A DNA stretch of 64,000 nt. Origin: an uncultured Candidatus Berkelbacteria bacterium. GTDB lineage: Bacteria; Patescibacteriota; UBA1384; UBA12157. The notes beneath the pieces are model-generated. The model was not told where the DNA came from. It saw nothing but the letters and a program-made list of their open reading frames with translations, and searched no databases. The stretch covers positions 17,956 through 81,955 of the forward strand of contig CAIRFN010000005.1 of assembly GCA_903877885.1 (NCBI GenBank). The letters are read 5' to 3'. Below are positions 11,345 to 61,823 of the stretch, one piece after another; position 1 is the stretch's first letter; every line of letters starts with the position of its first letter. A program made the translations under genes and the position numbers.

Positions 11345-11372
11345 AAAATAGTATCTGGTGTACAGAGTAACA

Positions 11373-11408
11373 AAGGACAGTCCTTAAACGCGTAAAAGGA
11401 CTGTCCTT
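11373..11408. repeat. REP-like palindromic element (aaggacagtcctt arms), copy 1
   Basis: aaggacagtcctt-aaacgcgtaa-aaggactgtcctt followed by tttt. Located between the convergent genes lepB and 11469..12995. Confidence 0.8.
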
Positions 11409-11468
11409 TTAAATTATAGATCGCCACGGTCTGCTGACCTCGCGATGACAATTTTTTTAGATCTATCT

Positions 11469-13145: not shown

Positions 13146-14177
13146 TTAACTCGCTAATTTAAGAACTAATAAGTCGAGGGCCACTTTTGGCTCAACCTGA
13201 CCGGTTTTCATCGCCAAATCGTTTTCCATTAATTCATGGTAGATTTTTTTCAGTTCTATCATATTGTAATTCTTAATTAAATTTAGGCTTTTACCGGCCA
13301 CAAACGGATGCAATCCAGCCCGTTTCGACAGCTCCCACTGCGAATTTACTCCGCGCTCGGCAAAATCCATCGTAATTAACAGGTTCCGATATTGATAAAC
13401 AATCATCGACAAAATATAGAGTTCATTTTCGCCATTATCTAAAAGTCGGTGTAATTCGTATAATGATTTTTTGACGTTTCGACTAGCGACCGCGTCAACC
13501 AGAGCAAAAATATCGCTGGAAGTTTGCGGTTTAACCAAGAGTTCGATATTTTGAACTGTAATAATATTGTCATCCTCGAGCCGGTGTGAGTCTTTATCGA
13601 ACACCGACATCGGGGATCCAGATCCCGGATCCTGAAGCCTTCCGGTCCGGGATGACAGACCTTTAAAAGTTGCAAGTTTGGCAATTTCATTTCCTAACCG
13701 CCACAAATCGGCGCCAACATATTCAAATAATTTTTGAACACCATCAGATGTAATCGTACCATTTAATTTAGCAACTTCTTCGCGAATCCAGGTTTTTGCA
13801 CCTTGTTCATCAAGCGGTTTAAATTCTTGGGTTTTTTGTTTAGCTAATTTTTTGTAAAGCGATGTCCGTTTATCTGGCACGCCTGCTTCAGCAAAAACCA
13901 AAACGGTTGTTTCCGGGACTTTCGGCAAAAATTCGCCGATTTTTTCTTGTTCATCCTTTTTTCCTTCTAACAACAAATTTTCAATAATCACCAGCCGACT
14001 TTTGGCTAAAAATGGATAGGCCAAAATCTGCCGAATCATAAAATCGGCTTTAGTCGTCTTGCCGTCAATCACCGCTAAATTTGTGTCCCCTAAAGACGCG
14101 GAAATATACTTTTCCTTCATCTCTTTAATTTTTTGTTTTAGTCTGTAAGTATCCTCGCCAAAAAGAAATAATATCAT
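13146..14177 (-). CDS. holA: DNA polymerase III delta subunit-like (HolA)
   Basis: 343 aa. N-terminus MILFLFGEDTYRLKQKIKEMKEKY and overall delta-subunit layout. It carries an in-frame family-A element at 13568-13657. Confidence 0.65.
   Translation of the reverse strand: MILFLFGEDTYRLKQKIKEMKEKYISASLGDTNLAVIDGKTTKADFMIRQILAYPFLAKSRLVIIENLLLEGKKDEQEKIGEFLPKVPETTVLVFAEAGVPDKRTSLYKKLAKQKTQEFKPLDEQGAKTWIREEVAKLNGTITSDGVQKLFEYVGADLWRLGNEIAKLATFKGLSSRTGRLQDPGSGSPMSVFDKDSHRLEDDNIITVQNIELLVKPQTSSDIFALVDAVASRNVKKSLYELHRLLDNGENELYILSMIVYQYRNLLITMDFAERGVNSQWELSKRAGLHPFVAGKSLNLIKNYNMIELKKIYHELMENDLAMKTGQVEPKVALDLLVLKLAS
13568..13657. repeat. Family-A MITE-like palindromic element (tgtcatcctcgag...gggatgaca) inserted in frame in holA
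   Basis: Termini tgtcatcctcgagccgg.. and ..ccggtccgggatgaca. Translated through as ..RLQDPGSGSPMSVFDKDSHRLEDDN.. Confidence 0.8.
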
Positions 14178-14257
14178 GGTTTGAGTATATCTGATTTTCT
14201 TGACTTTTCAACCTTTTTACGCTACAATTTGGACATTCGAACCTTGGAGGAAAGTCG

Positions 14258-15637: not shown

Positions 15638-15691
15638 CCAACACGCGGTGGCCTCCACCGCTTTTTAAATTCTGGCAATCTTCTAACAAAT

Positions 15692-15727
15692 AAGGACAGT
15701 CCTTCAGCGCGTTAAAGGACTGTCCTT
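15692..15727. repeat. REP-like palindromic element, copy 2
   Basis: aaggacagtcctt-cagcgcgtta-aaggactgtcctt followed by ttt. Located just after the fabH-like gene. Confidence 0.8.
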
Positions 15728-15735
15728 TTATTCTT

Positions 15736-15826
15736 TGTCATCCTCGAGCCGGAGGGTACTCCGACATCAAGGATCCAGAAAATTCCTGGATCCCAGATCC
15801 TGAAGCCTTCCAATCTGGGATGACAT
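15736..15826. repeat. Family-A MITE-like element, intergenic copy
   Basis: tgtcatcctcgagccggagggtactccgacatcaaggatccag + aaaattc + ctggatcccagatcctgaagccttccaatctgggatgaca. Confidence 0.8.
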
Positions 15827-15831: not shown

Positions 15832-16803
15832 TTAAAACAAGCTCAACCGATTATCTTCCCTATTAGATTTATGAATTCTGGGAATTAAGGATTTAAACCC
15901 GAGGTCTAAAAAGAGTTTTTCCACTTTTTCCTTATCAAAATCGTGAATTTTGGCATCTGATAATTTAAACTCGATCGGCGCATCTGAAACAATTTGTGAC
16001 AATTTTTGGCTTAAATATGCTTGATCTTTGTACTCAATTAATAAGGAAAGAACTTTTTTGGAAATTTTTAACTTTTCTGATAGTTTTTGAATTTTGTCAT
16101 CCTGAGCTTGCGAAGGAACTTTTTTAGATTCTTCACTACCGTTCAGAATGACATTATATAAATTATCAAGTGTTTGAAATTTCTCGATTAGATTGCTGGC
16201 CGTTTTTTCACCTATTCCTGGAACTCCGGGAATATTGTCCGAAGAGTCGCCTTTGAGCGCCTTTAGGTCAACAAATTGACTTGGATTAACATTATACCGC
16301 TCTTTGACTTTATTCTCATCGTACATGACCGCTTGCTGGACACCGCGCGCCATCGAATAAACCTTTGTACTCTGATCAATCAGCTGAAAAGTATCCGAGT
16401 CACCTGTCACAATAATGTTTTCAATTCCACTATCTTCTATCCCCTTTATTATCGTTGCGGCAATATCTTCGCCTTCATATCCTTCGGCCGAAACAATCGG
16501 AATATTCATGGTCTCCAACACTTTTTTGCAATATTGAATTTGCGGCACCAAATCATCAGGCATCGGTTTGCGCGTCGCTTTGTAATCAACATATTCCAAG
16601 TGCCGTTTGGTTGGTTTGGGTAAATCAAAACAAGCCACCAAGTATTCAGGTTGGAGTTCTTTAATGGCAGCAAGTAAAGCCGAGGCAAAACCATAGGCCG
16701 CGTTAATCGGATGACCATCGCGCGTCAAAGTCGGCGGAATACCATAGAATGCCCTAAAAATTAAAGCAAACGAATCAATTAAAACCAAACGATTTTTTAT
16801 CAT
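15832..16803 (-). CDS. 5'-3' exonuclease (Pol I N-terminal-type / FEN-like)
   Basis: 323 aa. N-terminus MIKNRLVLIDSFALIFRAFYGIP with the acidic metal-binding clusters typical of 5'-nuclease domains. It carries an in-frame family-B element. Confidence 0.85.
   Translation of the reverse strand: MIKNRLVLIDSFALIFRAFYGIPPTLTRDGHPINAAYGFASALLAAIKELQPEYLVACFDLPKPTKRHLEYVDYKATRKPMPDDLVPQIQYCKKVLETMNIPIVSAEGYEGEDIAATIIKGIEDSGIENIIVTGDSDTFQLIDQSTKVYSMARGVQQAVMYDENKVKERYNVNPSQFVDLKALKGDSSDNIPGVPGIGEKTASNLIEKFQTLDNLYNVILNGSEESKKVPSQAQDDKIQKLSEKLKISKKVLSLLIEYKDQAYLSQKLSQIVSDAPIEFKLSDAKIHDFDKEKVEKLFLDLGFKSLIPRIHKSNREDNRLSLF
16095..16153. repeat. Family-B palindromic element (tgtcatcctgagc...gttcagaatgaca) in frame in the 5'-exonuclease gene
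   Basis: tgtcatcctgagcttgcgaaggaacttttttagattcttcactaccgttcagaatgaca. Translated as ..PSQAQDDKIQ.. Confidence 0.8.
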
Positions 16804-16835
16804 TATGAATATACTTTAACACAGCTCTCTATACC

Positions 16836-16864
16836 TTGACAAATGGGCGATTTTATGGTACAAT
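16836..16864 (+). promoter_or_regulatory. Near-consensus promoter TTGACA, 17-bp spacer, extended TGgTACAAT
   Basis: ccttgacaaatgggcgattttatggtacaat. It drives the GC-rich lipoprotein gene. Confidence 0.55.
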
Positions 16865-16954
16865 TTATTGTTGCAAAGTTGACTTAGTCAATTGTGACCG
16901 TTAGCAATTTTGCTGACATCGACCCCCGCCCGAGGCGGGAGAAGGAACCTTAAA

Positions 16955-17446
16955 ATGAAAACTTCCCTGAACTTGATGGTAATGGTTGTACTGGCGGTTT
17001 TTTCGGCGCTCCTGATGACAGGTTGCGGCGAAACGGCCGATCCGGGCAATCTCGCCGCCAAATCGTCAATCGCCATCACCGGCGATGTCTCCCCGACCGC
17101 CAACGGCGCGACGTTCCATGTCTGCCTGACCAACCCGAATCCCGGCACGGTCAGTAAGAACGTGAAGGCGAATATCTTCATCAACCCAAACAGGAAGCTG
17201 GAAGTCTTTGCTGAAACCACCGTGGGTACAAACATCACCAGTTGGCTGTACCTCGACATCCCCAATGGGATGAAAATCGGTACCGTGACCCTGTGCCAGT
17301 GGGACGTCGAGAACAACTGGATTGTTGTTCCGATTGACCCAGTCATGGCAAAAAACCCCAGGAGCATCGACGTCGGCGACATCCTGGCACAGACGCCAAC
17401 AACACAAAACCAACGCTACCTTTATGGAACGTTGGTCCCCAAATAA
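16955..17446 (+). CDS. Lipoprotein (signal peptide with LMTGC lipobox) in a GC-rich island
   Basis: MKTSLNLMVMVVLAVFSALLMTGCGE. The start is trimmed to the ATG at 16955. Markedly higher GC than the flanks. Own promoter and terminator. Confidence 0.55.
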   Translation: MKTSLNLMVMVVLAVFSALLMTGCGETADPGNLAAKSSIAITGDVSPTANGATFHVCLTNPNPGTVSKNVKANIFINPNRKLEVFAETTVGTNITSWLYLDIPNGMKIGTVTLCQWDVENNWIVVPIDPVMAKNPRSIDVGDILAQTPTTQNQRYLYGTLVPK

Positions 17447-17464
17447 CACCGCAATAAAATGCGA

Positions 17465-17502
17465 AACTCCCCCTTTCATTACGATTGGGGGAGTTTTGTT
17501 TT
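17465..17502 (+). terminator. Rho-independent terminator
   Basis: aactccccc ... gggggagtt followed by ttgtttt. Confidence 0.7.
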
Positions 17503-17506
17503 AAAA

Positions 17507-17531
17507 TATGAAGTATGAATCATGAAGTATG
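17507..17531. repeat. Left 25-bp inverted repeat flanking the four-helix-bundle gene
   Basis: gaagtatgaatcatgaagtatggat is an imperfect reverse complement of 17914-17938. Confidence 0.6.
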
Positions 17532-17533
17532 GA

Positions 17534-17911
17534 TTACGGTAAATGACTTTTAGAGCTTTTAATTAAACCGGTTAATAATTTATGAACTATAACTGTTTTG
17601 TTAGCTAAATCAATAAAAATTTTGTTATCAATGTAGCCTATATCTCGCGCGATTAATAACTGATTCTGGAGCTCAGCTACAGAACCTTGAGAAATAGCAT
17701 AAAATTGGATTTTATCTTTATATGATTGACGACAAAATCCCTCGGCAATATTTGAGGTGATTGAGACTGCACATCTTTGAATTTGATTTGTTAAACTAAA
17801 AATTTCGCTTTTAGGAAAATTTTTTGCCGCTTTATATATCCCTAAAACAAGTTCATGCCCTGTTTGCCACGCGTTTAAATCTGTGAATGATTTAATCGAT
17901 TTCCCTTCCAT
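17534..17911 (-). CDS. Four-helix-bundle protein (23S rRNA intervening-sequence protein family)
   Basis: 125 aa. Characteristic ..AWQ..HELV..IYK..FPK.E...L..Q..R...S...NIAEG.. pattern. Confidence 0.8.
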   Translation of the reverse strand: MEGKSIKSFTDLNAWQTGHELVLGIYKAAKNFPKSEIFSLTNQIQRCAVSITSNIAEGFCRQSYKDKIQFYAISQGSVAELQNQLLIARDIGYIDNKIFIDLANKTVIVHKLLTGLIKSSKSHLP

Positions 17912-17913
17912 AA

Positions 17914-17938
17914 TTCATACTCCATGATCCATACTTCT
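17914..17938. repeat. Right 25-bp inverted repeat flanking the four-helix-bundle gene
   Basis: attcatactccatgatccatacttc. About 22 of 25 positions match the reverse complement of the left repeat. Confidence 0.6.
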
Positions 17939-17941
17939 ACC

Positions 17942-19258
17942 CTATCCATCCATTCTCTTTAACAACGCGTCGCGAGCGATTTTGCGGTCAGACCAAGGAA
18001 TTTTCTTTTCGCCAACCACCATACATTCCTCGGCGCCTTTGCCGGTAATGAGAACTATATCATCTTTGTGAGCAATTTTAATAGCCTTTTCAATCGCCTC
18101 TTTGCGATCAAAAATCTGGAAAAAGTTCTCGTTTAAAACTTTGGGATTTTTGCTATCAGCGCCGCGAGGCACGCCGCCGGAGACTTCCTCGATAATTTTT
18201 TGAGCGTCCTCGGTATATGGATCTTCGTTCGTCACAATCACAATATCGGCAAATTTACCAGCTAAGGCGCCCAAGATTGGCCGTTTGGTTTTATCACGAT
18301 CGCCGCAAGAACCCAAAACCGAAATAATTCGAGCTTTTTTAGCCATATCCAAGGTTTGATAAACTTTCTCCAAAGCGTCTGGCGTATGAGCGTAATCAAT
18401 AATGACAGCAAAACTTTGGCCTATATCCACTTTTTCCATTCGACCTGGAACCACATCCATTTCTTCGAGTGCTTGTTTGGCCACATCCAAATGAATTTTT
18501 AAAGCATAGGCCACACAAATCGCAGCCAAAGCATTATAAATATTAAACTTGCCGGGCAAATTAGAATTAACCGCAATTTGACTGGTTGGAGTGACAATCG
18601 TAAACATTGAACCAGTTGGTTCTAGAATAATTTTTTTAGCTAAAATTTCAGGTCGAACCTGACGCGTGGTTTGAGCATTTTCAATACCGTAAGTGATAAT
18701 ATCGCGAGCTGGTAAAGCCGCAAGCTGATCAATTGTTTTTTCATCATCATTATTTAAAATATTAATCGTTTTGCCAGTCGAAAAAAGTTTGGTTTTAACC
18801 TTGCGATATTCCTCAAAAGTCTTATGATAATCCAGATGGTCGTGCGTCATATTGGTCATAATGGCAATCTGATAATTGATCCCATAAGTGCGATATTGGC
18901 TAATGGCGTGAGAAGAAGTTTCCAAAACCACCCAATGACAGCCAGCTTTAAGGCATCGACTCAAAAACTTTTGAACCGCAAATGGCGAGTCGGTGGTCAT
19001 TTTAGTCGTATTAACCCACTCTTCTTTACCAATCTTAAAATTAATCGTCGTGGCCATACCCACACGGTAATTGGCTTTTTCCAAAATTCTGGCAATCATA
19101 TTACAAGTCGTGGTTTTGCCGTTTGTACCAGTCACACCGATAATTTTGAGTTTTCGACCAGGAAAACCATAAATCATGGCCGCCAAAACGCCTCGGGCGA
19201 AATGCGTCCAAATGATAAATGATTCAGGTAAAATTGATTTAAGATAAGATTTAATCAT
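17942..19258 (-). CDS. murE: Mur ligase, MurE-like (UDP-MurNAc-L-Ala-D-Glu : diamino acid ligase) with a short N-terminal domain
   Basis: GVTGTNGKTTT P-loop, DHLDYH, GKFNIYNALAA, GRMEKV, IIDYAHTPDALEKV and ITGKGAE motifs. Confidence 0.75.
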   Translation of the reverse strand: MIKSYLKSILPESFIIWTHFARGVLAAMIYGFPGRKLKIIGVTGTNGKTTTCNMIARILEKANYRVGMATTINFKIGKEEWVNTTKMTTDSPFAVQKFLSRCLKAGCHWVVLETSSHAISQYRTYGINYQIAIMTNMTHDHLDYHKTFEEYRKVKTKLFSTGKTINILNNDDEKTIDQLAALPARDIITYGIENAQTTRQVRPEILAKKIILEPTGSMFTIVTPTSQIAVNSNLPGKFNIYNALAAICVAYALKIHLDVAKQALEEMDVVPGRMEKVDIGQSFAVIIDYAHTPDALEKVYQTLDMAKKARIISVLGSCGDRDKTKRPILGALAGKFADIVIVTNEDPYTEDAQKIIEEVSGGVPRGADSKNPKVLNENFFQIFDRKEAIEKAIKIAHKDDIVLITGKGAEECMVVGEKKIPWSDRKIARDALLKRMDG

Positions 19259-20217
19259 TTCCTTCTCATCTTCTCGATAAACTTAAATAAATTATACCAG
19301 CATTTGCTGTAAATAATATCCCAACTTCCGACTGTTTGGTATTTGATGCCGCCAAATTGCTCTTTAAATTGAGTGATACCGGCGTATTTATGTTTTTTGT
19401 CATTCTGAGCTTGCGAAGAATCTATAGATCCTTCACTGCGTTCAGGATGACTATTAAATGGCGCTACTGCTAATAAATCATAAAACTTGCAACCTTTGGC
19501 TTTGGCGATTTTAATCGCCTCCCAGTGCATTAGGTATGGTGCCATTACATTGCGATATTTTGATAAGCTTGCTCCATAAAGATAAGTCGCCATTTCGTCA
19601 AAAAAAGTAAAAATTCCAGCCGCCACGGGAATATCATTATATTTAACAACCAAAAGTTCAACGGAATTTATTTCTTTTAAGGTTTGAATTAATTTAGCAA
19701 AATATTTTTTTGGTCTGATTTGAAAACCATCTCGGCTAGCCGTTTCCTTAAAAATTTCGTAAAATTCGTCAATATTTTGTGATTTTTCAACAACTAAACC
19801 ATGTTTTTGCCCTACTTTAATATTATATCGGCCTTTTGGTTTCATTTTGGCCAAAATTTCTTCTTCAGATTTTGTTATATCCACAATTTGACGATATTCT
19901 GGCTGAATCTCTTCAAACGATTTAATGAGATGATTTTTCTTCAAAATTGTTGTAATTTTTCCACCAAAAACCGAGTTTTTTTGATTCAAAAAATCTAACC
20001 TTAAAAATATCGAGTGGGATTTTTTAGAAATTTCTTTAATTTTTGGTAAAAATTTGGGGAAATTGATTTTGTAAAAATCGACTTCCGGCGAGTACAGAAA
20101 ACTAAAACCCAGTGGTAATGGTTTTTCCAAAACTAAAACCTCATCAACCCAATGGGCTTTCCAACCTTGACTTTCGCGAAGCGCAGCCCATTCCTTTGTT
20201 TGTAGAATTGATTTCAT
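19255..20217 (-). CDS. FemAB-family peptidoglycan interpeptide aminoacyltransferase (FemX-like)
   Basis: 320 aa. N-terminus MKSILQTKEWAALRESQGW and overall Fem-family layout. It overlaps murE by 4 nt. It carries an in-frame family-B element. Confidence 0.65.
   Translation of the reverse strand: MKSILQTKEWAALRESQGWKAHWVDEVLVLEKPLPLGFSFLYSPEVDFYKINFPKFLPKIKEISKKSHSIFLRLDFLNQKNSVFGGKITTILKKNHLIKSFEEIQPEYRQIVDITKSEEEILAKMKPKGRYNIKVGQKHGLVVEKSQNIDEFYEIFKETASRDGFQIRPKKYFAKLIQTLKEINSVELLVVKYNDIPVAAGIFTFFDEMATYLYGASLSKYRNVMAPYLMHWEAIKIAKAKGCKFYDLLAVAPFNSHPERSEGSIDSSQAQNDKKHKYAGITQFKEQFGGIKYQTVGSWDIIYSKCWYNLFKFIEKMRRK
19398..19452. repeat. Family-B palindromic element in frame in the femX-like gene
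   Basis: tgtcattctgagcttgcgaagaatctatagatccttcactgcgttcaggatgac. Translated as ..HPERSEGSIDSSQAQND.. Confidence 0.8.
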
Positions 20218-20246: not shown

Positions 20247-21482
20247 ATGATGAAAGAAAAAATGAAAATATTAGCCATTGAATCAAGTTGTGACGAAACC
20301 GCGGCCGCCGTTATTGAAAATAATAACGGTGAGATTAAGATACATTCAAACATAATTTCTAGTCAAATTGATATTCACAAACAATTTGGTGGCGTTTTTC
20401 CCGAAATTGCTTCGCGTGCTCATGCCGAAAATATTATTCCGGTGATTAAAGAATCTTTAATTAATAGTATTGATGATGTCGATCTAATCGCTGTCACTGA
20501 CGGACCAGGTTTAATCGGTTCGCTTTTGGTTGGCGTCAATGTAGCCAAAACCTTGAGTTTCGCAAATAATATTCCGATCTTACCAATCAACCACTGGCTT
20601 GGTCATATCTATTCCTGTTTTACCGATGATAAAAATTTACCTCGATTCCCTCTTCTCGCCCTTATTGTTTCCGGTGGTCATACTGGTTTGGTGTTGATGA
20701 AAAGTCATACCGAGTACATTCAAATCGGCGCTACACTTGATGACGCCGCTGGCGAAGCTTTTGATAAAGTAGCAAAACTCTTAGAATTAGGTTATCCTGG
20801 CGGACCGGCGATTTCAGCTGCGGCTGAAGAATATAAAAAAGAATGTCATTCCGGTCCAGATGGTAATACTGGAACCGGAATCCAGGCCTGGATTCCCGAT
20901 GTCGAGTTGCCACTCGGCTCGAGAATGACAATTTCCTTTCCGAGAGCCATGCTTAATTCTAAAGATTATAATTTAATGTCAATTAAATTTCCGCGGGCCA
21001 TGATGCAATCAGGGAACTATAATTTCTCATTTTCAGGGTTAAAAACTTCTGTACTAAACAAAGTTCGAACTTTAACTGAAAATTGGAAATTGAGAACTGA
21101 AAATTTTGCCCCCGTAGTTGCCTATGAATTTCAACAATGCGTCATTGATATTTTAATTGGTAAAACTTTGAAAGCGGCTGAAGAATTTAAGCCAAAATCA
21201 ATTCTTCTTTGCGGCGGCGTTTCAGCAAATAAGGAATTAAGAGAACAAATGAAAAAAGCTATTTTGTCATTCCGGACCCCTCCTGTCATTCCGGACCGGT
21301 TGGCAACAGGATCCGGAATCCAGGAAAAAACGAATGACAAGATTAATTTTTTCTGTCCGCCCATCGAATTAACCGGCGATAACGCGGCCATGATCGGTAT
21401 TGCCGCAGCCTATCAAATCAACGCTGGCGTTAAACCAACTACATATAATAATGTAAATGCGAACTCAAATTTGAAATTGTAA
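20247..21482 (+). CDS. tsaD: tRNA N6-adenosine threonylcarbamoyltransferase TsaD (Kae1/Gcp family)
   Basis: (M)KILAIESSCDETAAAVIEN.. N-terminus with the His metal site. At 411 aa it is longer than typical, because of two in-frame element insertions plus a 17-codon tandem duplication. An alternative start exists at the ATG at 20262. Confidence 0.9.
   Translation: MMKEKMKILAIESSCDETAAAVIENNNGEIKIHSNIISSQIDIHKQFGGVFPEIASRAHAENIIPVIKESLINSIDDVDLIAVTDGPGLIGSLLVGVNVAKTLSFANNIPILPINHWLGHIYSCFTDDKNLPRFPLLALIVSGGHTGLVLMKSHTEYIQIGATLDDAAGEAFDKVAKLLELGYPGGPAISAAAEEYKKECHSGPDGNTGTGIQAWIPDVELPLGSRMTISFPRAMLNSKDYNLMSIKFPRAMMQSGNYNFSFSGLKTSVLNKVRTLTENWKLRTENFAPVVAYEFQQCVIDILIGKTLKAAEEFKPKSILLCGGVSANKELREQMKKAILSFRTPPVIPDRLATGSGIQEKTNDKINFFCPPIELTGDNAAMIGIAAAYQINAGVKPTTYNNVNANSNLKL
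20844..20930. repeat. Family-A MITE-like element in frame in tsaD (copy 1)
   Basis: tgtcattccggtccagatggtaatactggaaccggaatccag gc ctggattcccgatgtcgagttgccactcggctcgagaatgaca. Translated as ..CHSGPDGNTGTGIQAWIPDVELPLGSRMT.. Confidence 0.8.
21263..21340. repeat. Family-A MITE-like element in frame in tsaD (copy 2, with a duplicated left terminus)
   Basis: ttgtcattccggacccctcc tgtcattccggaccggttggcaacaggatccggaatccag gaaaaaacgaatgacaa. Translated as ..ILSFRTPPVIPDRLATGSGIQEKTNDK.. Confidence 0.75.
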
Positions 21483-21888: not shown

Positions 21889-24039
21889 ATGCAAGAATTA
21901 CCATCAAATTACAATTATAAAGAAACTGAAGACAAAATTTATGCGCTGTGGGAAGAAGCCGGCGCGTTTAAACCAGTTATTGATCCTAATCAAAAACCAT
22001 ATACGATTGTGATTCCGCCACCAAATGTGACTGGTTCTCTTCATATGGGTCATGCTTTAAATAACACAATTCAAGATATTTTAATTCGTCGCTCTCGGAT
22101 GCGTGGCGTGCCAACTCTATGGATTCCCGGAACTGATCATGCCGGTATTGCTACTCAAAATGTGGTGGAAAAAAAGTTGGCTAAAGAAGGCAAAACTCGT
22201 CAAGAACTTGGGCGCGAAGAGTTCACCAAAGAAGTTTGGGATTGGGTTGATCAATATGGCAACACTATTATTGGACAGCTCAAGAAAATGGGTTGTTCTT
22301 GCGATTGGTCCAGACAGCGTTTTACCATGGATGAAGGCTATTCAGAAGCGGTTAAAGTCGCGTTCAAAAATTACTATGATAAGGGTTATATTTATCAAGG
22401 TGAACGAGTGATCAACTGGTGTACCCGTTGTCAAACTGCCTTATCTGATATCGAAGTCGAACATATTGATCAAAACGCTAAACTATATTTTTTTAAATAT
22501 GATAAAAATTTTCCGATCACCATTGCCACTACGCGACCAGAGACAAAGCTTGGCGATACAGGTGTAGCGGTCAATCCGAAAGACAAAAGATATCAGGATT
22601 ACATTGGTAAAACTTTCAAGGTTAATTTTTGCGGTGTCGACCGCGAGATTCGGGTTTTTGCTGACATTAGTATTGATATAACCTTTGGCACTGGCGCCGT
22701 CGGAGTCACTCCAGCGCATTCTTTGGTTGACTATGAAATGGCCGAAAAAAATGGCTTGGATATTATTAAAGTGATTGATCAATATGGGAAAATGACCAAA
22801 GAAGCGGGAACAGAATTTGAAGGTTTGAAAGCAACTGAAGCGCAAGCCAAAGTCATCGAAATGTTGGAAAAAGCTGGGCTGATGGAAAAAGTGGAAGAAA
22901 TCCAAAACGCGATCAGTGTGTGTTATCGCTGTAATCGACCGATTGAGCCTCAACCGTCAAAACAATGGTTTTTAAAGATGTCGGAATTAGCAAAACCAGC
23001 GATTGAAGCGGTTAAATCTGGTCAAATTAAATTCACACCAGACCGTTGGACCAAAGTTTATTTAGACTGGATGGAAAATTTGCGCGACTGGTGCATTTCT
23101 CGCCAAATCTGGTGGGGGCACACCATTCCAATTGAAGGCGAAACTGATGTTTTGGACACTTGGTTTTCGTCAGCCTTGTGGCCGTTTGCCACACTTGGTT
23201 GGCCCAATAAAACTGAAGACCTAAAATATTTTTATCCGACCACCACACTTTCCACTGCCCGCGATATTATTTATCTGTGGGTGGCACGAATGATTTTTTC
23301 AGGGCTTGAATTTACCAACGAAATTCCATTTTCACAGGTTTATATTCATCCAACGGTTTTCAATAAAGAAGGTAAACGCATGTCCAAATCTTTGGGCACC
23401 GGCGTCGATCCTTTGGAACTGATCGAGAAATACGGTGCCGATGCCACGCGATTTGGTCTTACCTATATTAATACCGGGATTCAAGATTTGAAATTTGACG
23501 AAGAAGCTATTGGTGCTGGCAAAAAATTTGCCAATAAGTTGTGGAATATCACCAGATTCATGTTGATGAGCATTTGTCATTCCGGTCCGGATGGCTCCGG
23601 AACCGGAATCCAGGAAAATGATAATCTGGATTCCAGATCAGGTTGCCAACCAGTCTGGAATGACAAGATGGAACCAAGAACTGAAGCCGATAAAATCATT
23701 CTTGAAAAACTTAATGCCGTTATTAAATCAACTGACAAAAATCTTGATGAATTTAAATTTGGCCAAGCGGCGCATGATTTGTATGATTTCGTCTGGCACG
23801 ATTTGGCCGACGTATATATAGAAGAAAGCAAAGTGACCGCGAACGGTCATCCCGAGCCGAAGTCCGGCGAGGGAACCCCTGATTTTTCAGTATTACTTTA
23901 TGTAATAGTAACTTCGATTAAACTTTTGCACCCGATTATGCCGTTTGTAACAGAAGAAATCTGGCAAAAACTCTACGAAGATAAATTAGTTGATGAAAGA
24001 ATGCTGATTACGGCAAAATGGCCAAAAGCACAAGAATAG
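21889..24039 (+). CDS. valS: Valyl-tRNA synthetase (compact form)
   Basis: PPPNVTGSLHMGHAL HIGH region, KMSKS (GKRMSKSLG) and anticodon-binding region. Carries an in-frame family-A element at 23575-23665. Confidence 0.9.
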   Translation: MQELPSNYNYKETEDKIYALWEEAGAFKPVIDPNQKPYTIVIPPPNVTGSLHMGHALNNTIQDILIRRSRMRGVPTLWIPGTDHAGIATQNVVEKKLAKEGKTRQELGREEFTKEVWDWVDQYGNTIIGQLKKMGCSCDWSRQRFTMDEGYSEAVKVAFKNYYDKGYIYQGERVINWCTRCQTALSDIEVEHIDQNAKLYFFKYDKNFPITIATTRPETKLGDTGVAVNPKDKRYQDYIGKTFKVNFCGVDREIRVFADISIDITFGTGAVGVTPAHSLVDYEMAEKNGLDIIKVIDQYGKMTKEAGTEFEGLKATEAQAKVIEMLEKAGLMEKVEEIQNAISVCYRCNRPIEPQPSKQWFLKMSELAKPAIEAVKSGQIKFTPDRWTKVYLDWMENLRDWCISRQIWWGHTIPIEGETDVLDTWFSSALWPFATLGWPNKTEDLKYFYPTTTLSTARDIIYLWVARMIFSGLEFTNEIPFSQVYIHPTVFNKEGKRMSKSLGTGVDPLELIEKYGADATRFGLTYINTGIQDLKFDEEAIGAGKKFANKLWNITRFMLMSICHSGPDGSGTGIQENDNLDSRSGCQPVWNDKMEPRTEADKIILEKLNAVIKSTDKNLDEFKFGQAAHDLYDFVWHDLADVYIEESKVTANGHPEPKSGEGTPDFSVLLYVIVTSIKLLHPIMPFVTEEIWQKLYEDKLVDERMLITAKWPKAQE
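23575..23665. repeat. Family-A MITE-like element in frame in valS
   Basis: tgtcattccggtccggatggctccggaaccggaatccag...ctggattccagatcaggttgccaaccagtctggaatgaca. Translated as ..CHSGPDGSGTGIQENDNLDSRSGCQPVWNDK.. Confidence 0.8.
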
Positions 24040-24049
24040 ATAAATTTTG

Positions 24050-24068
24050 AAATTCGAATTTTGAATTT
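24050..24068. repeat. Outer 19-bp inverted repeat, left arm (aaattcgaattttgaattt)
   Basis: Its reverse complement is identical to 24481-24499. Lies within gaaattc-type short tandem repeats. Confidence 0.75.
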
Positions 24069-24074
24069 TTTCTT

Positions 24075-24451
24075 TGTCATTCCAGACCGGCCGGAGGCAG
24101 GATCTGGAATCCAGAATAAAATGAATAATTATTATGTGTATATTTTGACTAGCAGAAGAAACGGCACTTTATATATTGGCGTAACTAATGATCTGATTAA
24201 AAGAATATGGGAACATAAAAACCATAGTAAAAAAGGATTTACAGAAAAATATAACATTTGCCAATTGATATACTTTGAGCAAACTAATAATATAAACTCC
24301 GCTATTAATAGAGAAAAACAATTAAAATCATGGAATAGAAAATGGAAACTTGACTTAATTGAGAAAGTCAATCCTGATTGGAAAGATTTATATCAAGAAT
24401 TGTTGTAACTGGATTCCCGATGTCGGATGCCATCCGACTCGAGAATGACAA
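24075..24451 (+). mobile_element. Full-length family-A element carrying a GIY-YIG nuclease ORF between its two terminal modules
   Basis: Left module tgtcattccagaccggccggaggcaggatctggaatccag (24075-24114). ORF 24121-24408. Right module ctggattcccgatgtcggatgccatccgactcgagaatgaca (24410-24451). The short MITE copies (e.g. 38811-38904) are these two modules joined directly. Confidence 0.75.
24121..24408 (+). CDS. GIY-YIG nuclease family protein (UPF0213/YhbQ-like, about 95 aa)
   Basis: ..YYVYILTSRRNGTLYIGVTNDLIKRIWEHKN.. with the GIY...YIG motifs. The start is trimmed to the ATG at 24121. The track frame is open from 24061 through the left terminal module. Confidence 0.85.
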   Translation: MNNYYVYILTSRRNGTLYIGVTNDLIKRIWEHKNHSKKGFTEKYNICQLIYFEQTNNINSAINREKQLKSWNRKWKLDLIEKVNPDWKDLYQELL

Positions 24452-24480
24452 TTGGATAATTAAAAATTGATTCGAAATTC

Positions 24481-24499
24481 GAAATTCAAAATTCGAATT
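24481..24499. repeat. Outer 19-bp inverted repeat, right arm (aaattcaaaattcgaattt)
   Basis: Exact reverse complement of 24050-24068. Confidence 0.75.
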
Positions 24500-24514
24500 T
24501 AATTGAAAGTTACT

Positions 24515-37741: not shown

Positions 37742-37752
37742 ATACAGACCAA

Positions 37753-37788
37753 AAGGACAGTCCTTCAGCGCGTTAAAGGACTGTCCTT
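37753..37788. repeat. REP-like palindromic element, copy 3
   Basis: aaggacagtcctt-cagcgcgtta-aaggactgtcctt tt. It is followed by a ttgataccagatacc motif. Confidence 0.8.
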
Positions 37789-37839
37789 TTGGATAATCTG
37801 ACACTTGATACCAGATACCAAATGCTATATACTTGACCC

Positions 37840-38810: not shown

Positions 38811-38904
38811 TGTCATTCCAGACCGGACGGCGTCAGGATCTGGAATCTAGGATAATTGTTTCTGGATTCCCGATGTCGGATTGCCATCCGACTCGGGAAT
38901 GACA
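38811..38904. repeat. Family-A MITE-like element, intergenic reference copy
   Basis: tgtcattccagaccggacggcgtcaggatctggaatctag gataattgttt ctggattcccgatgtcggattgccatccgactcgggaatgaca. The whole element is a long imperfect palindrome. Confidence 0.85.
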
Positions 38905-38921: not shown

Positions 38922-40070
38922 TTATTTATTAACTTCTTTCTTCAGTTCTTCCACTTTATCCGTTCTCTCCCAAGGTAAATCTAATTCTGGTCTACCGAAA
39001 TGGCCATAGGCGGCAATTTTTTGGTAGATTGGTTTTCGAAGATCTAAGGCTTGGATAATCATCCCTGGTCGTAAATCAAAAACTTTACTCACCGCTTGAG
39101 CGATTTTATCGTCTTCAATGGTGCCAGTACCAAACGTATCAATTCGCACCGACATTGGTTCAGCTCGACCGATGGCATAAGCAATCTGCACTTCACAGCG
39201 TTCGGCTAATTTTGCGGCAACGATATTCTTGGCCACCCATCTGGCCGCATAGCTACCCGACCGATCAACTTTACTCGGATCTTTTCCAGAGAAACAACCG
39301 CCACCGTGACGCGCATAGCCACCATAAGTATCAACAATAATTTTGCGGCCGGTCAGTCCAGTATCACCTTGCGGCCCACCAATCACAAACCGACCGGTGG
39401 TGTTGACATAGTAGTTTGTATTTTGAAGCAAGGATTTAGGGATAACTTTTTCAATTACTTTCTCGATAATTTCTTTTTTTAAGATCGATGTTTTAATATT
39501 TTCATCATGTTGTGCCGCAATTAAAACCGATTCGATGCGGACTGGTTTGTCGCCATCATATTCAACTGTAACCTGGCTTTTGCCGTCTGGTCGCAAGCCT
39601 TTGACAATCCCCTTTTTTCGAACTTCAGCCAAGCGTTGGCAAAGTTTGTGAGCCAAAACAATTGGCAAAGGCATTAATTCTTTGGTTTCGCGACAAGCAT
39701 AACCAAACATCAAACCTTGATCACCGGCGCCTAGATTTTCCAAGTCTTCGACCAAAGGACAGTCCTTTTGTTCCTTTAAGGACTGTCCTTTACTAAACGC
39801 ATCAACACCCTGTGCAATATCGGCTGATTGTTCCTTAACCGCCACCATTACACCGGAAGTTTCCCAGTGAAAACCATATTCGGCATTTGTATAGCCAATT
39901 TGTTTAATGACGTTGCGAGCGATTTTCGGAATATCGACATATGTTTTAGTGGTAATTTCTCCAGCGATAATACAAACGCCGTTGGTCAGCAATGTTTCGC
40001 AAGCGACTCGTCCTTGCGGATCGTCAGTTAAAATTGCATCGAGTACCGCATCACTAATCTGATCAGCCAT
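38922..40070 (-). CDS. metK: S-adenosylmethionine synthetase
   Basis: [35 protein letters not shown] and the rest of the canonical MetK sequence. Carries an in-frame REP-like insertion at 39765-39800 (..[17 protein letters not shown]..). Confidence 0.95.
39765..39800. repeat. REP-like palindromic element inserted in frame inside metK
   Basis: aaggacagtcctt-ttgttccttt-aaggactgtcctt. It adds about 12-16 residues relative to the conserved MetK loop before GAGDQG. Confidence 0.8.
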
Positions 40071-40183: not shown

Positions 40184-40277
40184 TGTCATTCCAGACCGGA
40201 TGGCATCAGGATCTGGAATCCAGAGTTAATTATTTCTGGATTCTTGATGTCGGAGTACCCTCCGGCTCGAGAATGAC
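40184..40277. repeat. Family-A MITE-like element in the metK 5' leader, between the riboswitch terminator and the start codon
   Basis: tgtcattccagaccggatggcatcaggatctggaatccag...ctggattcttgatgtcggagtaccctccggctcgagaatgaca. Confidence 0.8.
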
Positions 40278-40292
40278 ATAAAAAAACAAAAA

Positions 40293-40412
40293 TCACCGCA
40301 AGCGGTGAAATATATAAAAACATCTTTCCCGCAAGGGGTCGGAGGTAGCACCTAAATTAATGGGTTGCTGGTGGATCATCGGGCCGAATCCCTCACCACA
40401 CTCTTGATATTA
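40293..40412 (-). ncRNA. SAM-I (S-box) riboswitch with an intrinsic terminator, upstream of metK
   Basis: Minus-strand read: AUCAAGAGUGUGGUGAGGGAUUCGGCCCGAUGAUCCACCAGCAACC...GGUGCUACCUCCGAC. This matches the conserved SAM-I core AGAGnGGnGGAGGGAnnGGCCCGAUGAnnCCnnGCAACC...GGUGCUA. It is followed by a terminator tcaccgcttgcggtga plus a T-run at 40280-40308. Confidence 0.8.
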
Positions 40413-40528
40413 AAATTAATTTTTAACTAAATTTATCATATTATAACCATCTAACTTTTGTCAAACTCTTGCCTGGAAACAATTTTTGCTTTAAGATGTA
40501 AATATTAAATTTATATTTTAGGAGCAAA

Positions 40529-45136: not shown

Positions 45137-45527
45137 TGTCATCCTCGAGCCGGTTTGAGCTTTGTCGAAAACCGACATCAAGGATCCATCAAAATAAAAA
45201 GCTATTTCGTTTACATTTTAGCCAGTCAGAAAAACGGAACATTATATATCGGTGTTACAAATGATATTATAAGAAGGATTTGGGAGCACAAAAATAAAGC
45301 TATTCAAGGTTTTACAGATAAATATAGAATTGATAAATTAGTTTATTTCGAAGAAACACCAGATATTAATTCAGCTATTAAGAGAGAAAAACAATTAAAA
45401 TTATGGAGCCGTTCCTGGAAAATAGATTTGATAGAAAAGAATAATCCTGATTGGAAAGATTTATATCAAGATTTGTTATAATGGATCCTTGATGTTGGAG
45501 CGCTTCGCTTCCAACTCGAGGATGACA
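45137..45527 (+). mobile_element. Second full-length family-A element carrying a GIY-YIG ORF between its terminal modules, inserted between atpA and atpG
   Basis: Left module tgtcatcctcgagccggtttgagctttgtcgaaaaccgacatcaaggatcca. ORF to 45481. Right module tggatccttgatgttggagcgcttcgcttccaactcgaggatgaca. Confidence 0.75.
45155..45481 (+). CDS. GIY-YIG nuclease family protein (second copy)
   Basis: ..YFVYILASQKNGTLYIGVTNDIIRRIWEHKN..REKQLKLWSRSWK.. The frame is open from a TTG inside the left terminal module. There is no ATG near the conserved N-terminus, so the start is uncertain. Confidence 0.75.
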   Translation: MSFVENRHQGSIKIKSYFVYILASQKNGTLYIGVTNDIIRRIWEHKNKAIQGFTDKYRIDKLVYFEETPDINSAIKREKQLKLWSRSWKIDLIEKNNPDWKDLYQDLL

Positions 45528-45548: not shown

Positions 45549-45611
45549 ATGTCATTCTCGAGCCGAATGGTAATTCGACCTGCCTGACGGCAGGCAGGCA
45601 TCAAGAATCCA
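45549..45611. repeat. Family-A solo module with an embedded 20-nt palindrome (cctgcctgacggcaggcagg)
   Basis: tgtcattctcgagccgaatggtaattcgacctgcctgacggcaggcaggcatcaagaatccaa. Confidence 0.7.
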
Positions 45612-45617
45612 ACTGTA

Positions 45618-45659
45618 TGTCATTCTCGAGTCGGATGGGATCCGACATCAAGAATCCAG
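45618..45659. repeat. Family-A solo module, tandem direct copy
   Basis: tgtcattctcgagtcggatgggatccgacatcaagaatccag. Confidence 0.7.
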
Positions 45660-45712
45660 ATAAATAAAAAAGGCCAATGCGTAAACGCAAAGGCCGAAAT
45701 CCGGTCTTAAAG

Positions 45713-46025: not shown

Positions 46026-47066
46026 ATGCCAAGTACACAAGAATTTCGTAGAAGAATTAAATCGGTCAGTTCGACCAAACAGATTACCAAAGCAATGGAA
46101 ATGATTGCTTCTATTAAGATGCAAAAATCTGTCAAAACTATTGCCCAGGCTCGAGCCTATATCCAAAACGCATGGAATATTTTACATTTACTGTCTGAAA
46201 AAATATTAAGCGACGATCACGCGCTGATTAATCCTAAAGATCATGCCAAAAAAACAGCCGTGATTTTAATTACTTCTGACCGCGGTTTATGCGGTTCATA
46301 TAATTCAGAAGTGATCAAGAAGCTAACATCATTCAAAAATGTCATCCTCGAGACGGAGGGTACTCCGACATCAAGGATCCAGGACCTGGATTCCAGATCT
46401 GGTTCCCAACCAGTCTGGAATGACAATACGATTGATATCATTGCCATCGGTAAAGTCGGCGCCGCGTTTGTTAACAGATATAAAATCGGCAAACTGATCG
46501 CTGAATTTAAAGGTTTTGAAAATAATATTTCCGTTGAAGATGTCATTCCGATTTCCAAACTGACGAATGGTGAATATATGGCTGGAAATTATGACAAAGT
46601 GGTAGTGATTTATTCTCATTTCATTTCTTCGCTTAAACAAGTCCCGGTCGTCAAACAAATTTTGCCAATTGTCGAAGATCATATCGATCATCCGGAATTA
46701 TGGGAAGGAAATAATGTCATCCTCGAGCCGGAGGGTACTCCGACATCAAGGATCCAGGACCTGGATTCCCGATCCGGAGGCCATCCGGTCGAGAATGACA
46801 AAAACAATACTGAATACAAATTTGAACCCAATCCTGATGAAGTTTTTGATGGCGTCTTGCGACAAATTTTACGCACCCAAATTTTCGGTGCCATTTTAGA
46901 AGCCAACGCTTCTGAACATTCGGCCCGTATGGTGGCCATGAAAAATGCCACCGACAATGCCACCGATTTAGTTGATGAATTAAAATTAGTATATAACAGC
47001 ATCCGCCAAGGAAACATCACTTCGGAAATCGCCGAAATTAGTGGTGCCGCCGAGGCGATGAAATAA
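46026..47066 (+). CDS. atpG: F0F1 ATP synthase subunit gamma (lengthened by two in-frame MITE insertions)
   Basis: Conserved N-terminus (..RRRIKSVSSTKQITKAMEMIASIKMQK..) and C-terminus (..NSIRQGNITSEIAEISGAAEAM). At 346 aa it is longer than typical. Confidence 0.9.
   Translation: MPSTQEFRRRIKSVSSTKQITKAMEMIASIKMQKSVKTIAQARAYIQNAWNILHLLSEKILSDDHALINPKDHAKKTAVILITSDRGLCGSYNSEVIKKLTSFKNVILETEGTPTSRIQDLDSRSGSQPVWNDNTIDIIAIGKVGAAFVNRYKIGKLIAEFKGFENNISVEDVIPISKLTNGEYMAGNYDKVVVIYSHFISSLKQVPVVKQILPIVEDHIDHPELWEGNNVILEPEGTPTSRIQDLDSRSGGHPVENDKNNTEYKFEPNPDEVFDGVLRQILRTQIFGAILEANASEHSARMVAMKNATDNATDLVDELKLVYNSIRQGNITSEIAEISGAAEAMK
46340..46425. repeat. Family-A MITE-like element in frame in atpG (copy 1)
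   Basis: tgtcatcctcgagacggagggtactccgacatcaaggatccag gac ctggattccagatctggttcccaaccagtctggaatgaca. Translated as ..VILETEGTPTSRIQDLDSRSGSQPVWND.. Confidence 0.8.
46715..46800. repeat. Family-A MITE-like element in frame in atpG (copy 2)
   Basis: tgtcatcctcgagccggagggtactccgacatcaaggatccag gac ctggattcccgatccggaggccatccggtcgagaatgaca. Translated as ..VILEPEGTPTSRIQDLDSRSGGHPVEND.. Confidence 0.8.
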
Positions 47067-49124: not shown

Positions 49125-49170
49125 TGTCATCCTGAGCGTAGCGAAGGATCTATCATAACGCGTCGCAAGC
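49125..49170. repeat. Family-B element, degenerate or truncated copy
   Basis: tgtcatcctgagcgtagcgaaggatctatcataacgcgtcgcaagc. Left terminus is intact; the right terminus is missing. Confidence 0.55.
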
Positions 49171-49558: not shown

Positions 49559-49649
49559 TGTCATTCTCGACCGGACGGCCTCCGGATCGGGAATCTAGAA
49601 ATATAATCCTGGATCCCAGATCCTGTTTGACAACCGGTCTGGGATGACA
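49559..49649. repeat. Family-A MITE-like element, intergenic
   Basis: tgtcattctcgaccggacggcctccggatcgggaatctag...cctggatcccagatcctgtttgacaaccggtctgggatgaca. Confidence 0.8.
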
Positions 49650-50646: not shown

Positions 50647-51150
50647 GTGCAATTTCAAGTACCGCAAAATATAGATCTCGAAGACAAGATTGTCGGGCCA
50701 TTGACCTTGACGCAGTTTTTGTATGTCTTAGGCGGCGGCCTTGTTGATTACATTATGTTTCAATCTTTTGCCGCTAATTATTTTGGGCTTTTTCTGGTTC
50801 TTGGTATCCCAGTCGCTTTACTTGCTTTAGGATTAGCTTTTTTTAAAGTCCAAGAACAGCCTTTGTCACATTTTATCACAGTTGGAATTTTATATTTATT
50901 TAAACCAAAAACTAGACTATGGAAAAGAGAAGAAAGCTATCCAACAGTTCTAACTGAACCAACAAAAAAAGAAAAAAAGGAAAATGAAAATGTGGCAATT
51001 CCAAAACATCATCTTGAAAAAAGTGAGCTGGAACAATTAGCCTACAAATTAGATACTTTTCAAGTAGATACGCCGGTTGAAGAAAAGAAAAAATTTGGCG
51101 CAGTTTCCGCCGCTTTCGAACAATTATTGAAGGAAGATAAAAAGAAGTAA
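50647..51150 (+). CDS. Small 2-TM protein, VirB3-like / PrgI-like component of Gram-positive-type T4SS (tentative)
   Basis: 167 aa. GTG start after GGAGGGG. Hydrophobic hairpin LYVLGGGLVDYIMF...LVLGIPVALLALGLAFF followed by a charged tail. First gene of the operon that contains VirB4. Confidence 0.45.
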   Translation: MQFQVPQNIDLEDKIVGPLTLTQFLYVLGGGLVDYIMFQSFAANYFGLFLVLGIPVALLALGLAFFKVQEQPLSHFITVGILYLFKPKTRLWKREESYPTVLTEPTKKEKKENENVAIPKHHLEKSELEQLAYKLDTFQVDTPVEEKKKFGAVSAAFEQLLKEDKKK

Positions 51151-51163
51151 CCAGGAGGGGATC

Positions 51164-53685: not shown

Positions 53686-53687
53686 TT

Positions 53688-55954: not shown

Positions 55955-55966
55955 ATAGGAGACTAA

Positions 55967-56671: not shown

Positions 56672-56720
56672 AAAAGAGGCCTTGTAAGCCTCTTGGGGAT
56701 TGAAATTTATTTTTTATATT

Positions 56721-61437: not shown

Positions 61438-61460
61438 AAAGTAGACGGTATCCGACAATA

Positions 61461-61495
61461 AAGGACTGTCCTTCAACGCGCTAAAGGACAGTCCT
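61461..61495. repeat. REP-like palindromic element, copy 5
   Basis: aaggactgtcctt-caacgcgcta-aaggacagtcctt tttt. Followed by atacttgatactaaatcctaaatactagatac. Confidence 0.8.
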
Positions 61496-61540
61496 TTTTA
61501 AATACTTGATACTAAATCCTAAATACTAGATACTAATTTT

Positions 61541-61813: not shown

Positions 61814-61823
61814 CTTTACCTAA

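Follow-up and report, generated by a model that had tools for sequence, protein, structure and literature searches.

We analysed a 64,000-nt stretch of DNA (64 kb, hereafter the window; contig CAIRFN010000005.1, positions 17,956 to 81,955) from an uncultured Candidatus Berkelbacteria bacterium, of the Patescibacteria or Candidate Phyla Radiation (CPR). We focused on a short palindromic repeat, family B, that lies within two of its protein-coding genes, and on the relation of this repeat to a second one of the same window, family A, and to the small GIY-YIG nucleases called Ssn. One family B copy lies in a gene for a 5'-3' exonuclease of the flap endonuclease type and another in a gene for a FemAB-family (FemX-like) peptidyltransferase (Table 1). 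Both are doublets of two inverted arms around a very short centre: the first reads TGTCATCCTGAGCTTGCGAAGGAAC / TTTTTTA / GATTCTTCACTACCGTTCAGAATGACA and the second TGTCATTCTGAGCTTGCGAAGAATC / TATA / GATCCTTCACTGCGTTCAGGATGACT. Their predicted in-frame translations are VILNGSEESKKVPSQAQDDK (V218-K237) in the exonuclease and SHPERSEGSIDSSQAQNDK in the FemAB-family protein, and FNSHPERSEGSIDSSQAQNDKK is an example of the predicted peptide across an insert junction. The same in-frame palindromes and peptides had been quoted in a first-pass annotation of this DNA, and both coordinates and translations were reproduced here. That annotation also placed a degenerate palindrome after atpC (49125-49170); what we found there is one intact family B arm in agreement with the pan-bacterial consensus, with neither a partner arm downstream nor a fold detected.

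Table 1. Repeat elements, host genes and nuclease-bearing elements of the window, in positions of the whole stretch.
Feature	Position	Strand	Details
Family B doublet	16095-16153	.	59 nt; arms 16095-16119 and 16127-16153; 7-nt centre
Family B doublet	19398-19452	.	55 nt; arms 19398-19422 and 19427-19452; 4-nt centre
Single intact family B arm	49125-49151	+	TGTCATCCTGAGCGTAGCGAAGGATCT; begins 2 nt past the atpC stop codon
Host gene, 5'-3' exonuclease (flap endonuclease type)	15832-16803	-	323 aa; Pfam 5_3_exonuc_N and 5_3_exonuc
Host gene, FemAB-family (FemX-like) peptidyltransferase	19255-20217	-	320 aa; Pfam FemAB
Full-length element 1	24075-24450	+	family A arm, Ssn-type GIY-YIG open reading frame 24121-24408 (95 aa), family A arm
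Full-length element 2	45137-45527	+	A2-type arm, Ssn-type GIY-YIG open reading frame (45155/45197-45481), A2-type arm
Family A gene-less doublet	23575-23665	.	in frame inside valS
Family A doublet	13568-13657		within a gene
Family A doublet	20844-20930		within a gene
Family A doublet	21265-21339		within a gene
Family A doublet	46340-46425		within a gene
Family A doublet	46715-46800		within a gene
Family A doublet	15736-15825		between genes
Family A doublet	38811-38904		between genes
Family A doublet	40184-40278		between genes
Family A doublet	49559-49649		between genes

Family B copies in their host genes

The first-pass annotation had proposed a comparison of orthologous proteins, and this comparison recovered close orthologs without the inserts. 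Ten out of 31 exonuclease orthologs (298-311 aa) had nothing at the insert position (...LYxN IE-KIxGK...), where the window protein has about 25 extra residues. For the FemX-like protein, the shortest form of the loop among 120 orthologs was APEG-xE-xHKYAGITRFKEQFGG, and the window protein has about 18 residues more in that loop. As judged from the alignments, the B doublets were confirmed as insertions in both host genes.

The same two loops hold different inserts in other lineages: HSEAQVEESPANAGSSIRERSFATARDD in ortholog P0025, VIASETKQSIKIKDCHALSGLAMT in P0035 (where a second loop also holds VSHPERSEGSPANAGL...TAQNDN), and (C/R)HPEPxGEGS...AQND(K/R) in P0129 and P0135. At the DNA level, the inserts of P0025 and P0035 are inverted pairs of GTCAT arms (locus L204, 1825-1922 and 2217-2287; locus L205, 3692-3777). 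The exonuclease orthologs of these two loci carry other arm variants in the insert loop of the window protein, and the one of L204 has a B-type doublet at the second loop.

The AlphaFold models had mean pLDDT values of 87 for the exonuclease and 92 for the FemX-like protein. In the exonuclease model the arm-encoded ends prolong two helices around an unmodelled centre (residues 225-228, pLDDT <50); in the FemX-like model a strand and a helix are joined by a loop of residues 258-273, also with pLDDT <50. Both inserts are predicted to sit in low-confidence surface loops of otherwise well-modelled proteins. The best homologs point to Candidatus Berkelbacteria as the source. An assembly artefact is unlikely, because exactly the same exonuclease and FemX-like proteins are present on 7 and 9 independent contigs, respectively, and a second assembly is 100% identical to the window over 14 kb.

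As RNA, both B doublets form hairpins on both strands, with energies of -21 to -23 kcal/mol and z-scores of -4.9 to -6.1 (0 of 200 shuffles were as good). A known RNA family was ruled out: the Rfam search of the window returned a SAM riboswitch alone, with no match at the elements and none around the B copies even at E<=1, and the search of 18 loci with canonical B copies gave no match either. A terminator role for the intragenic copies was also rejected, as the terminator scan did not pick them up.

Two further features of the window were noted. The SAM riboswitch (RF00162, 57.6 bits) lies at 40317-40413 on the minus strand, and the family A doublet at 40184-40278 ends about 40 nt away from it. 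Separately, a 38-nt near-perfect palindrome, AAAGGACAGTCCTTCAGCGCGTTAAAGGACTGTCCTTT(T), occurs in six copies, all of them intergenic (11372-11409, 15691-15727, 37749-37792, 39754-39799, 61460-61497 and 61823-61860); the copy at 15692-15727 was terminator-like in the terminator scan, and the palindrome looks like a repeated terminator module.

Structure, distribution and reading frames of the arms

We scanned one genome per species, from 185,579 species, with the query GTCATYCTGAGCNNNGCGAAGRA and found the B arm at no fewer than 120 loci in at least 12 phyla, with about 4 chance matches estimated under equal base frequencies. The arm was present in Acidobacteriota, Chloroflexota, Nitrospirota and Verrucomicrobiota; in Bacteroidota, including cultured Hymenobacter, Lacinutrix and Mucilaginibacter; in Planctomycetota, Gemmatimonadota, Omnitrophota and Bdellovibrionota; and in Clostridia, Saccharibacteria, Gracilibacteria, Coxiellaceae and Desulfovibrio. 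Among the matches listed, 84 of 154 arms had an inverted partner within 1.5 kb, and the resulting elements were mostly 60-115 nt long. A literature search with the B-arm sequence string returned primers only.

The arm consists of (T)GTC, then AT-YCT-GA-GC-(3-4 nt loop)-GC-GA-AGR-AT, then C, and measures 25-27 nt; it is a short hairpin with two tandem G.A mismatches, flanked by GTC on the 5' side and by C on the 3' side. In 155 arms from 120 loci, again among the matches listed, positions 6 and 22, which form the closing pair, change together: 100 arms have C-G and 51 have T-A, with a mismatch in 4 (Fisher p = 6e-36). After the stem comes ATC in 123 out of the 155 arms and ACC in 26 more; a T precedes the arm in 123, and three loop bases are variable. 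All five B arms of the window have GTCAT; four of the five have the preceding T, and four have ATC after the stem, the exception being the arm at 16095 (AAC). Left and right arms of one and the same window element differ by compensatory changes, namely C..G vs T..A and GAGC..GCGA vs GAAC..GTGA. The conserved unit is the arm hairpin and not the long palindrome, because the differing arms each remain self-complementary.

A sister arm, GTCATTGCGAG...GCAATC (L204 2217-2287; also at loci L154 and L171), keeps the B core GAG..GAAG and replaces the outer stem TCCT/AGGA by TTGC/GCAA. This swap is a further compensatory change and supports the hairpin. A Berkelbacteria-like exonuclease gene carries the sister arm in frame, and metagenome loci have it on the flanks of ssn genes.

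The arm motifs occur in the window more often than expected by chance. TGTCATYCTGA, with up to one mismatch, was observed 7 times vs 1.75 expected, and arms made of GTCAY, a hairpin and ATC were observed 29 times vs 1.4 expected. The superfamily is represented by 19 elements or single arms. The gene-less inverted doublets measure 55-96 nt, and single arms also occur, at 49125, 32309 and 45618. Nine of the 19 lie within long open reading frames (ORFs), all with the frame kept: one each in ORF 13149-14207, the exonuclease gene and the FemX-like gene, and two each in tsaD, valS and atpG. The seven intragenic copies outside family B (the six family A copies given as intragenic in Table 1 and one at 23845-23880) are hosted by an unnamed 353-aa ORF, tsaD (two), valS (two) and atpG (two); besides family A doublets they include a truncated copy and a single arm whose stem is of a third type (GGTCATCCCGAGCCGAAGTCCGGCGAGGGAACC, translated as GHPEPKSGEGTP).

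One of the three arm frames contains TGA, and the surviving copies use the other two, the left arm giving peptides of the type VIL.. or.HPE.. and the right arm AQ(D/N)DK; all nine intragenic copies avoid the frame with the stop. Of 53 B doublets in other phyla, no more than 6 lie within a long open frame, a figure to be read as an upper bound, as such frames arise by chance in GC-rich genomes. From a practical point of view, arm-derived stretches of predicted proteins can be recognised by peptides such as CHPERSEGS, VILSEAKDL and AQDDK.

Ssn-type GIY-YIG genes between paired arms

Ssn proteins have been described by Chenal et al. (2025, Nat Commun 16:2388; PMC11893778) as single-domain GIY-YIG proteins of about 94 aa (cd10448). 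According to that study, Ssn binds a 28-nt hairpin repeat, NTS (CGTCATTCCCGCGMAVGCGGGAATCYRG), as single-stranded DNA only, and cuts a few nucleotides 5' of it; the GTC upstream of the palindrome is critical for cleavage and the C after the palindrome for binding, and the loop is dispensable. The gene typically stands between inverted repeats (NTS-ssnA-NTS), an arrangement that the authors liken to an insertion sequence. They named divergent NTS versions SRMs, defined as hairpin-forming repeats of 20-50 nt with an oriented 5' flank (C/T)GTC, and reported more than 300 SRMs in Rickettsia, Wolbachia and Neisseria, with a specificity that varies among Ssn homologs (PMC11893778).

Longer versions of the elements in the genome set contain a small ORF, and an iterative search with this ORF recovered two homologs in the window, both centred between family A arms. 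Element 1 reads TGTCATTCCAGACCGGCCGGAGGCAGGATCTGGAATCCAG-aataaa-ATG...TAA-CTGGATTCCCGATGTCGGATGCCATCCGACTCGAGAATGACA and element 2 reads TGTCATCCTCGAGCCGG...GACATCAAGGATCCA-...-TAA-TGGATCCTTGATGTTGGAGCGCTTCGCTTCCAACTCGAGGATGACA. Both ORFs matched PF01541 (E 1e-14 and 2e-16) and no other domain. Residues Y7, Y18, R28, H32 and E65 are invariant in the alignment, with a shift of one residue relative to the catalytic Y6, Y17 and E64 of N. meningitidis SsnA. ORF 45155-45481 has no ATG; in frame it could start only at a TTG that lies within its left arm, and the arm would encode its N-terminus, MSFVENRHQGSIKIK. Many database homologs likewise carry arm-encoded extensions (SFPRKRESS, WIPDQVGNDK, LDSRLRGND).

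An alignment of six such proteins was used to scan metagenome contigs, with at least 590 confirmed relatives, and the flanks of the best 80 loci were examined. At 54 of these best 80 loci, GTCAY lies upstream and RTGAC downstream at a distance of up to about 160 nt, typically as (T)GTCAT-TCCCGC-GAAG-GCGGGA-ATCCAG ... ORF ... CTGGAT-TCCCGC-CTTC-GCGGGA-ATGAC(A), with many covarying stems. At 13 of the best 80 the arms match the 27 nt of NTS that follow its first base, and in four of them the first base (C) agrees as well; the proteins of those 13 loci are 54-67% identical to the two window proteins. The window ORFs are candidate Ssn-type nucleases, on the indirect evidence of their resemblance to proteins whose flanks match NTS.

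The gene-less family A doublet consists of the same two arms as the ssn-bearing element, joined at CCAG...CTGG. Family B arms stand on both sides of an ssn homolog at four other loci (L030, L100, L146 and L183) and adjoin one at two more (L011 and L174); the ssn homologs with B-arm flanks showed a weak tendency to cluster together, in a set of five sequences only. Homologs with 65-76% identity were found in Doudnabacteria, Rhodocyclales, Thermotogae (Defluviitoga), Nitrospirae and Dadabacteria, and at E<=1e-10 the Ssn family amounts to 5,248 clusters (50% identity). This wide distribution would fit horizontal spread.

Several features were noted around these genes. Element 1 is nested between AT-rich inverted repeats (24040-24072 and 24460-24500; AAATTTTGAAATTCGAATTTTGAATTTT / TTCGAAATTCGAAATTCAAAATTCGAATTT), and in other orthologs peptides of that repeat type (EIRNSKFEIRNS, KSEFLISNQ, NPKQIQNSKFKI) occupy the insert loops of the exonuclease and FemX, which suggests a third repeat class with a preference for the same insertion sites. 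Just downstream of element 2, two single A2-type arms lie in direct orientation (45550-45612 and 45618-45660), and a GC-rich hairpin, CCTGCCTGACGGCAGGCAGG, interrupts the first; the two arms make up a small cluster resembling the mosaic repeat arrays of Neisseria. Between the exonuclease gene and murE, a gene at 17534-17911 (minus strand) encodes a 23S-rRNA-intervening-sequence protein, or bAvd-like four-helix bundle (PF05635, E 1e-35). We rejected this gene as the owner of the arms: it has no flanking arm, and no such ORF is found in the longer elements. Elsewhere in the window, a type IV secretion or conjugation-like cluster (PrgI, TraC-like, TraG-type P-loop ATPase, NlpC/P60) was read at ~50650-56700 from the Pfam matches of an identical contig (L203, 2951-8975). 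Finally, a GC-rich repeat of 12-nt periodicity (GAAGGxGCAGCC-like) at 58200-58331, inside a 1246-aa ORF (57697-61437), encodes an Ala/Glu/Gly-rich low-complexity stretch.

Interpretation and comparison with known systems

The family B copies are probably gene-less doublets of an SRM/NTS-type hairpin repeat, that is, two inverted arms of the kind recognised by the nuclease. The B arm is a hairpin repeat with a 5' (C/T)GTC flank and a 3' C, and inverted copies around an ssn gene occur for family B in other bacteria and for family A in the window, not for family B in the window. GIY-YIG genes with paired family A arms and gene-less doublets with the same arms coexist in the window. The relatedness of the two families at their termini, put forward in the first-pass annotation, goes beyond chance: both families have (T)GTCAT, a hairpin and ATC, and both flank homologous GIY-YIG genes. 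The shared TGTCAT terminus corresponds to the conserved Ssn determinants, namely GTC for cleavage and the AT that opens the hairpin.

The same annotation had seen in this terminus a common mobilisation mechanism, possibly one nuclease, acting on divergent cargo. As far as sequences can tell, the idea of a shared, nuclease-based mechanism appears largely right: both families are tied to GIY-YIG genes, and the terminus coincides with the positions critical for Ssn. Mobilisation by Ssn is the part that we infer. The divergent cargo did not hold up, as the interior is just 4-7 nt and the families differ in the stem of the recognition hairpin; what the full-length form really carries is the nuclease gene.

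The doublets could be derived from the arm-ssn-arm unit as non-autonomous forms, with an Ssn nuclease spreading them in trans. For family B, this nuclease would be either a B-specific paralogue elsewhere in the genome or a cross-reacting A-type enzyme, and element 1 is a candidate source of a mobilising nuclease. In a genome as gene-dense as that of Berkelbacteria, most insertions would fall within genes, and the survivors would be those that hit a surface loop able to accept them, use one of the two arm frames without a stop and have a length that keeps the frame. The outcome would be an enzyme that is intact but for one added loop of 18-20 residues.

Several points weigh against the family B copies being mobile doublets of Ssn recognition arms. 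To our knowledge, transposition by an Ssn nuclease has never been demonstrated, and inverted arms would offer one cleavable site per strand, so that a simple excision model of the IS200/IS605 type is not directly applicable. No ssn gene flanked by B arms was found in the 64 kb or in the 7.4 kb recovered upstream, where no new arms appeared, and no direct repeats that could represent a target-site duplication flank the window elements. As DNA under standard parameters, the isolated B arm folds at -0.9 to -2.7 kcal/mol, no better than shuffles. Finally, the published SRM pattern, HGTCWYN(0-2)YYVSBRHN(0-5)WNVSBRGN(0-2)RNCYNB, has 0 matches in the window, with no A or B arm recovered.

We take the weak DNA fold to be a limit of the energy model, as standard parameters handle tandem G.A pairs poorly. 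As for the pattern, it is a narrow search tool and not a definition: it recovers arms at 32 out of 86 ssn loci, and GTCAY is present on both sides at 64 out of the 86. Families A and B are variants that the published census would have missed, because the pattern matches none of the arms in the window, and SRM counts per genome are underestimates, because the pattern cannot see the widespread B variant.

The arms might instead be recognition sites domesticated by the host and not mobile. Cleavage by Ssn of incoming single-stranded DNA with the motif would then modulate transformation or recombination, as has been suggested for NTS in Neisseria, and the in-frame copies would mark or protect essential genes. 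In Neisseria, SsnA reduces the integration of transforming DNA that bears NTS, and NTS clusters around particular genes (PMC11893778); the single arms that exist besides the doublets would suit such a role as well. However, domestication leaves unexplained how the motif arrived in different loops of conserved genes across lineages, and why arm-ORF-arm and arm-arm pairs exist, and an insertion process would still be needed. As a full account we consider it improbable. The two views are not exclusive, and by analogy with Neisseria transformation a domesticated role may exist alongside mobility.

A classical origin as MITEs (transposable elements of the miniature inverted-repeat type) appears very unlikely. 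The elements would then descend, by deletion, from an insertion sequence that has a DDE transposase and TGTCAT terminal inverted repeats; this transposase would mobilise them, and the nearby GIY-YIG genes would be passengers. Terminal inverted repeats, small size, many copies and gene-less forms are all in line with MITEs, and so are the TG...CA termini, which are common among DDE elements. Against this, the target-site duplication is lacking in the window elements, and the only ORF between arms, here and at 54 of the best 80 loci, is the GIY-YIG gene of about 95 aa. Moreover, the arm stems covary as hairpins, with GTC and C fixed, which fits recognition of a single-stranded hairpin and not of a double-stranded inverted repeat.

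We give next to no credence to removal of the inserts before the protein is made, as an intervening sequence excised at the mRNA hairpin or as an intein-like segment that would leave the enzymes unaltered: the stable RNA hairpins (-21 to -23 kcal/mol) and the modelled disorder of the inserts are compatible with it, but there is no Rfam match even at E<=1, a length of 55-59 nt is far below that of a group I or II intron or an intein, RNase III-type excision without ligation would destroy the mRNA, and nine intragenic copies that all keep frame and avoid the stop frame are expected only if translated.

Returning to doublets of Ssn recognition arms, a wider claim can be made, which we hold tentatively and with slightly less than even confidence. 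The arm-ssn-arm units and the gene-less doublets might be a true class of prokaryotic transposable elements, separate from every recognised insertion-sequence family and driven by a GIY-YIG single-strand nuclease that takes its guidance from DNA hairpins. Such elements would repeatedly remodel surface loops of essential proteins in CPR bacteria and perhaps, in the form of the long-unexplained palindromic elements, in Rickettsia, with the same loops hit independently across lineages. The pairs of elements with and without the gene that share their arms, together with the recurrent occupation of the same loops, provide comparative signatures of mobility.

Among known systems, the repetitive extragenic palindromes (REPs) and REPINs with their RAYT enzymes (IS200/IS605-like Y1 HUH) resemble our elements in architecture: both have single hairpin repeats and inverted doublets, a short conserved 5' motif adjoining the hairpin, an enzyme gene in single or low copy with flanking repeats, and recognition of a hairpin in single-stranded DNA. 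They differ in the enzyme (GIY-YIG here vs HUH tyrosine) and in the motif (GTC(AT) here vs GTAG); in addition, REPs are, with few exceptions, found between genes and restricted to a species, whereas the B arm is almost unchanged over at least 12 phyla. We rejected a REP/RAYT identity for these elements: the doublet architecture fits, but the flanked gene encodes a GIY-YIG protein and not a Y1 transposase, and the motif is GTCAT. The QMITE elements of Coxiella are of the REP GTAG type and were also set aside as unrelated.

The closest likeness is to the Ssn/NTS system. NTS and the B arm have a common frame, made of GTC, a palindrome that opens and closes with AT, and then C. More generally, 5' (C/T)GTC-AT and 3' AT-C, an arm length of about 25-28 nt, inverted copies around a GIY-YIG gene of about 95 aa, a spread over several phyla and stem variants that differ between genomes are found on both sides. 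In contrast, the published SRM pattern does not cover the B stem (YCTGAGC...GCGAAGR, with tandem G.A) or the A arms with their long loops, and here we find gene-less inverted doublets, half of the copies in frame in conserved genes, and a host from the Patescibacteria. The text of PMC11893778 makes no mention of in-frame or intragenic copies, of Patescibacteria or of Rickettsia palindromic elements (RPEs), and does not describe the gene-less doublet form. The Ssn system itself has been known since 2025, with the enzyme side published only in that year; what is new here is the B arm variant outside the published pattern, the gene-less doublets and the dense in-frame insertions, a clear example from CPR bacteria of such repeats behaving as selfish elements within reading frames.

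Finally, we compared the elements, by pattern and published description, with the RPEs (Ogata et al. 2000, 2002). In the summary given in PMC10969869, RPEs are described as elements of about 100-150 bp, in several families, inserted in frame in unrelated housekeeping genes and with no mobilising enzyme known. Common to both are in-frame palindromic repeats in unrelated housekeeping genes, a small gene-dense genome, an added peptide compatible with the fold, and several families per genome. The elements of the window differ in being 55-96 nt long and linked to a nuclease gene, and the family B size of 55-59 nt does not fit the RPE families. No earlier connection between the two was found in a literature search; the present elements link Ssn repeats with palindromic insertions that lie in frame as those of Rickettsia do, and the link extends into the CPR. 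It would also provide a candidate enzyme for the 25-year-old question of what spreads such palindromic elements.

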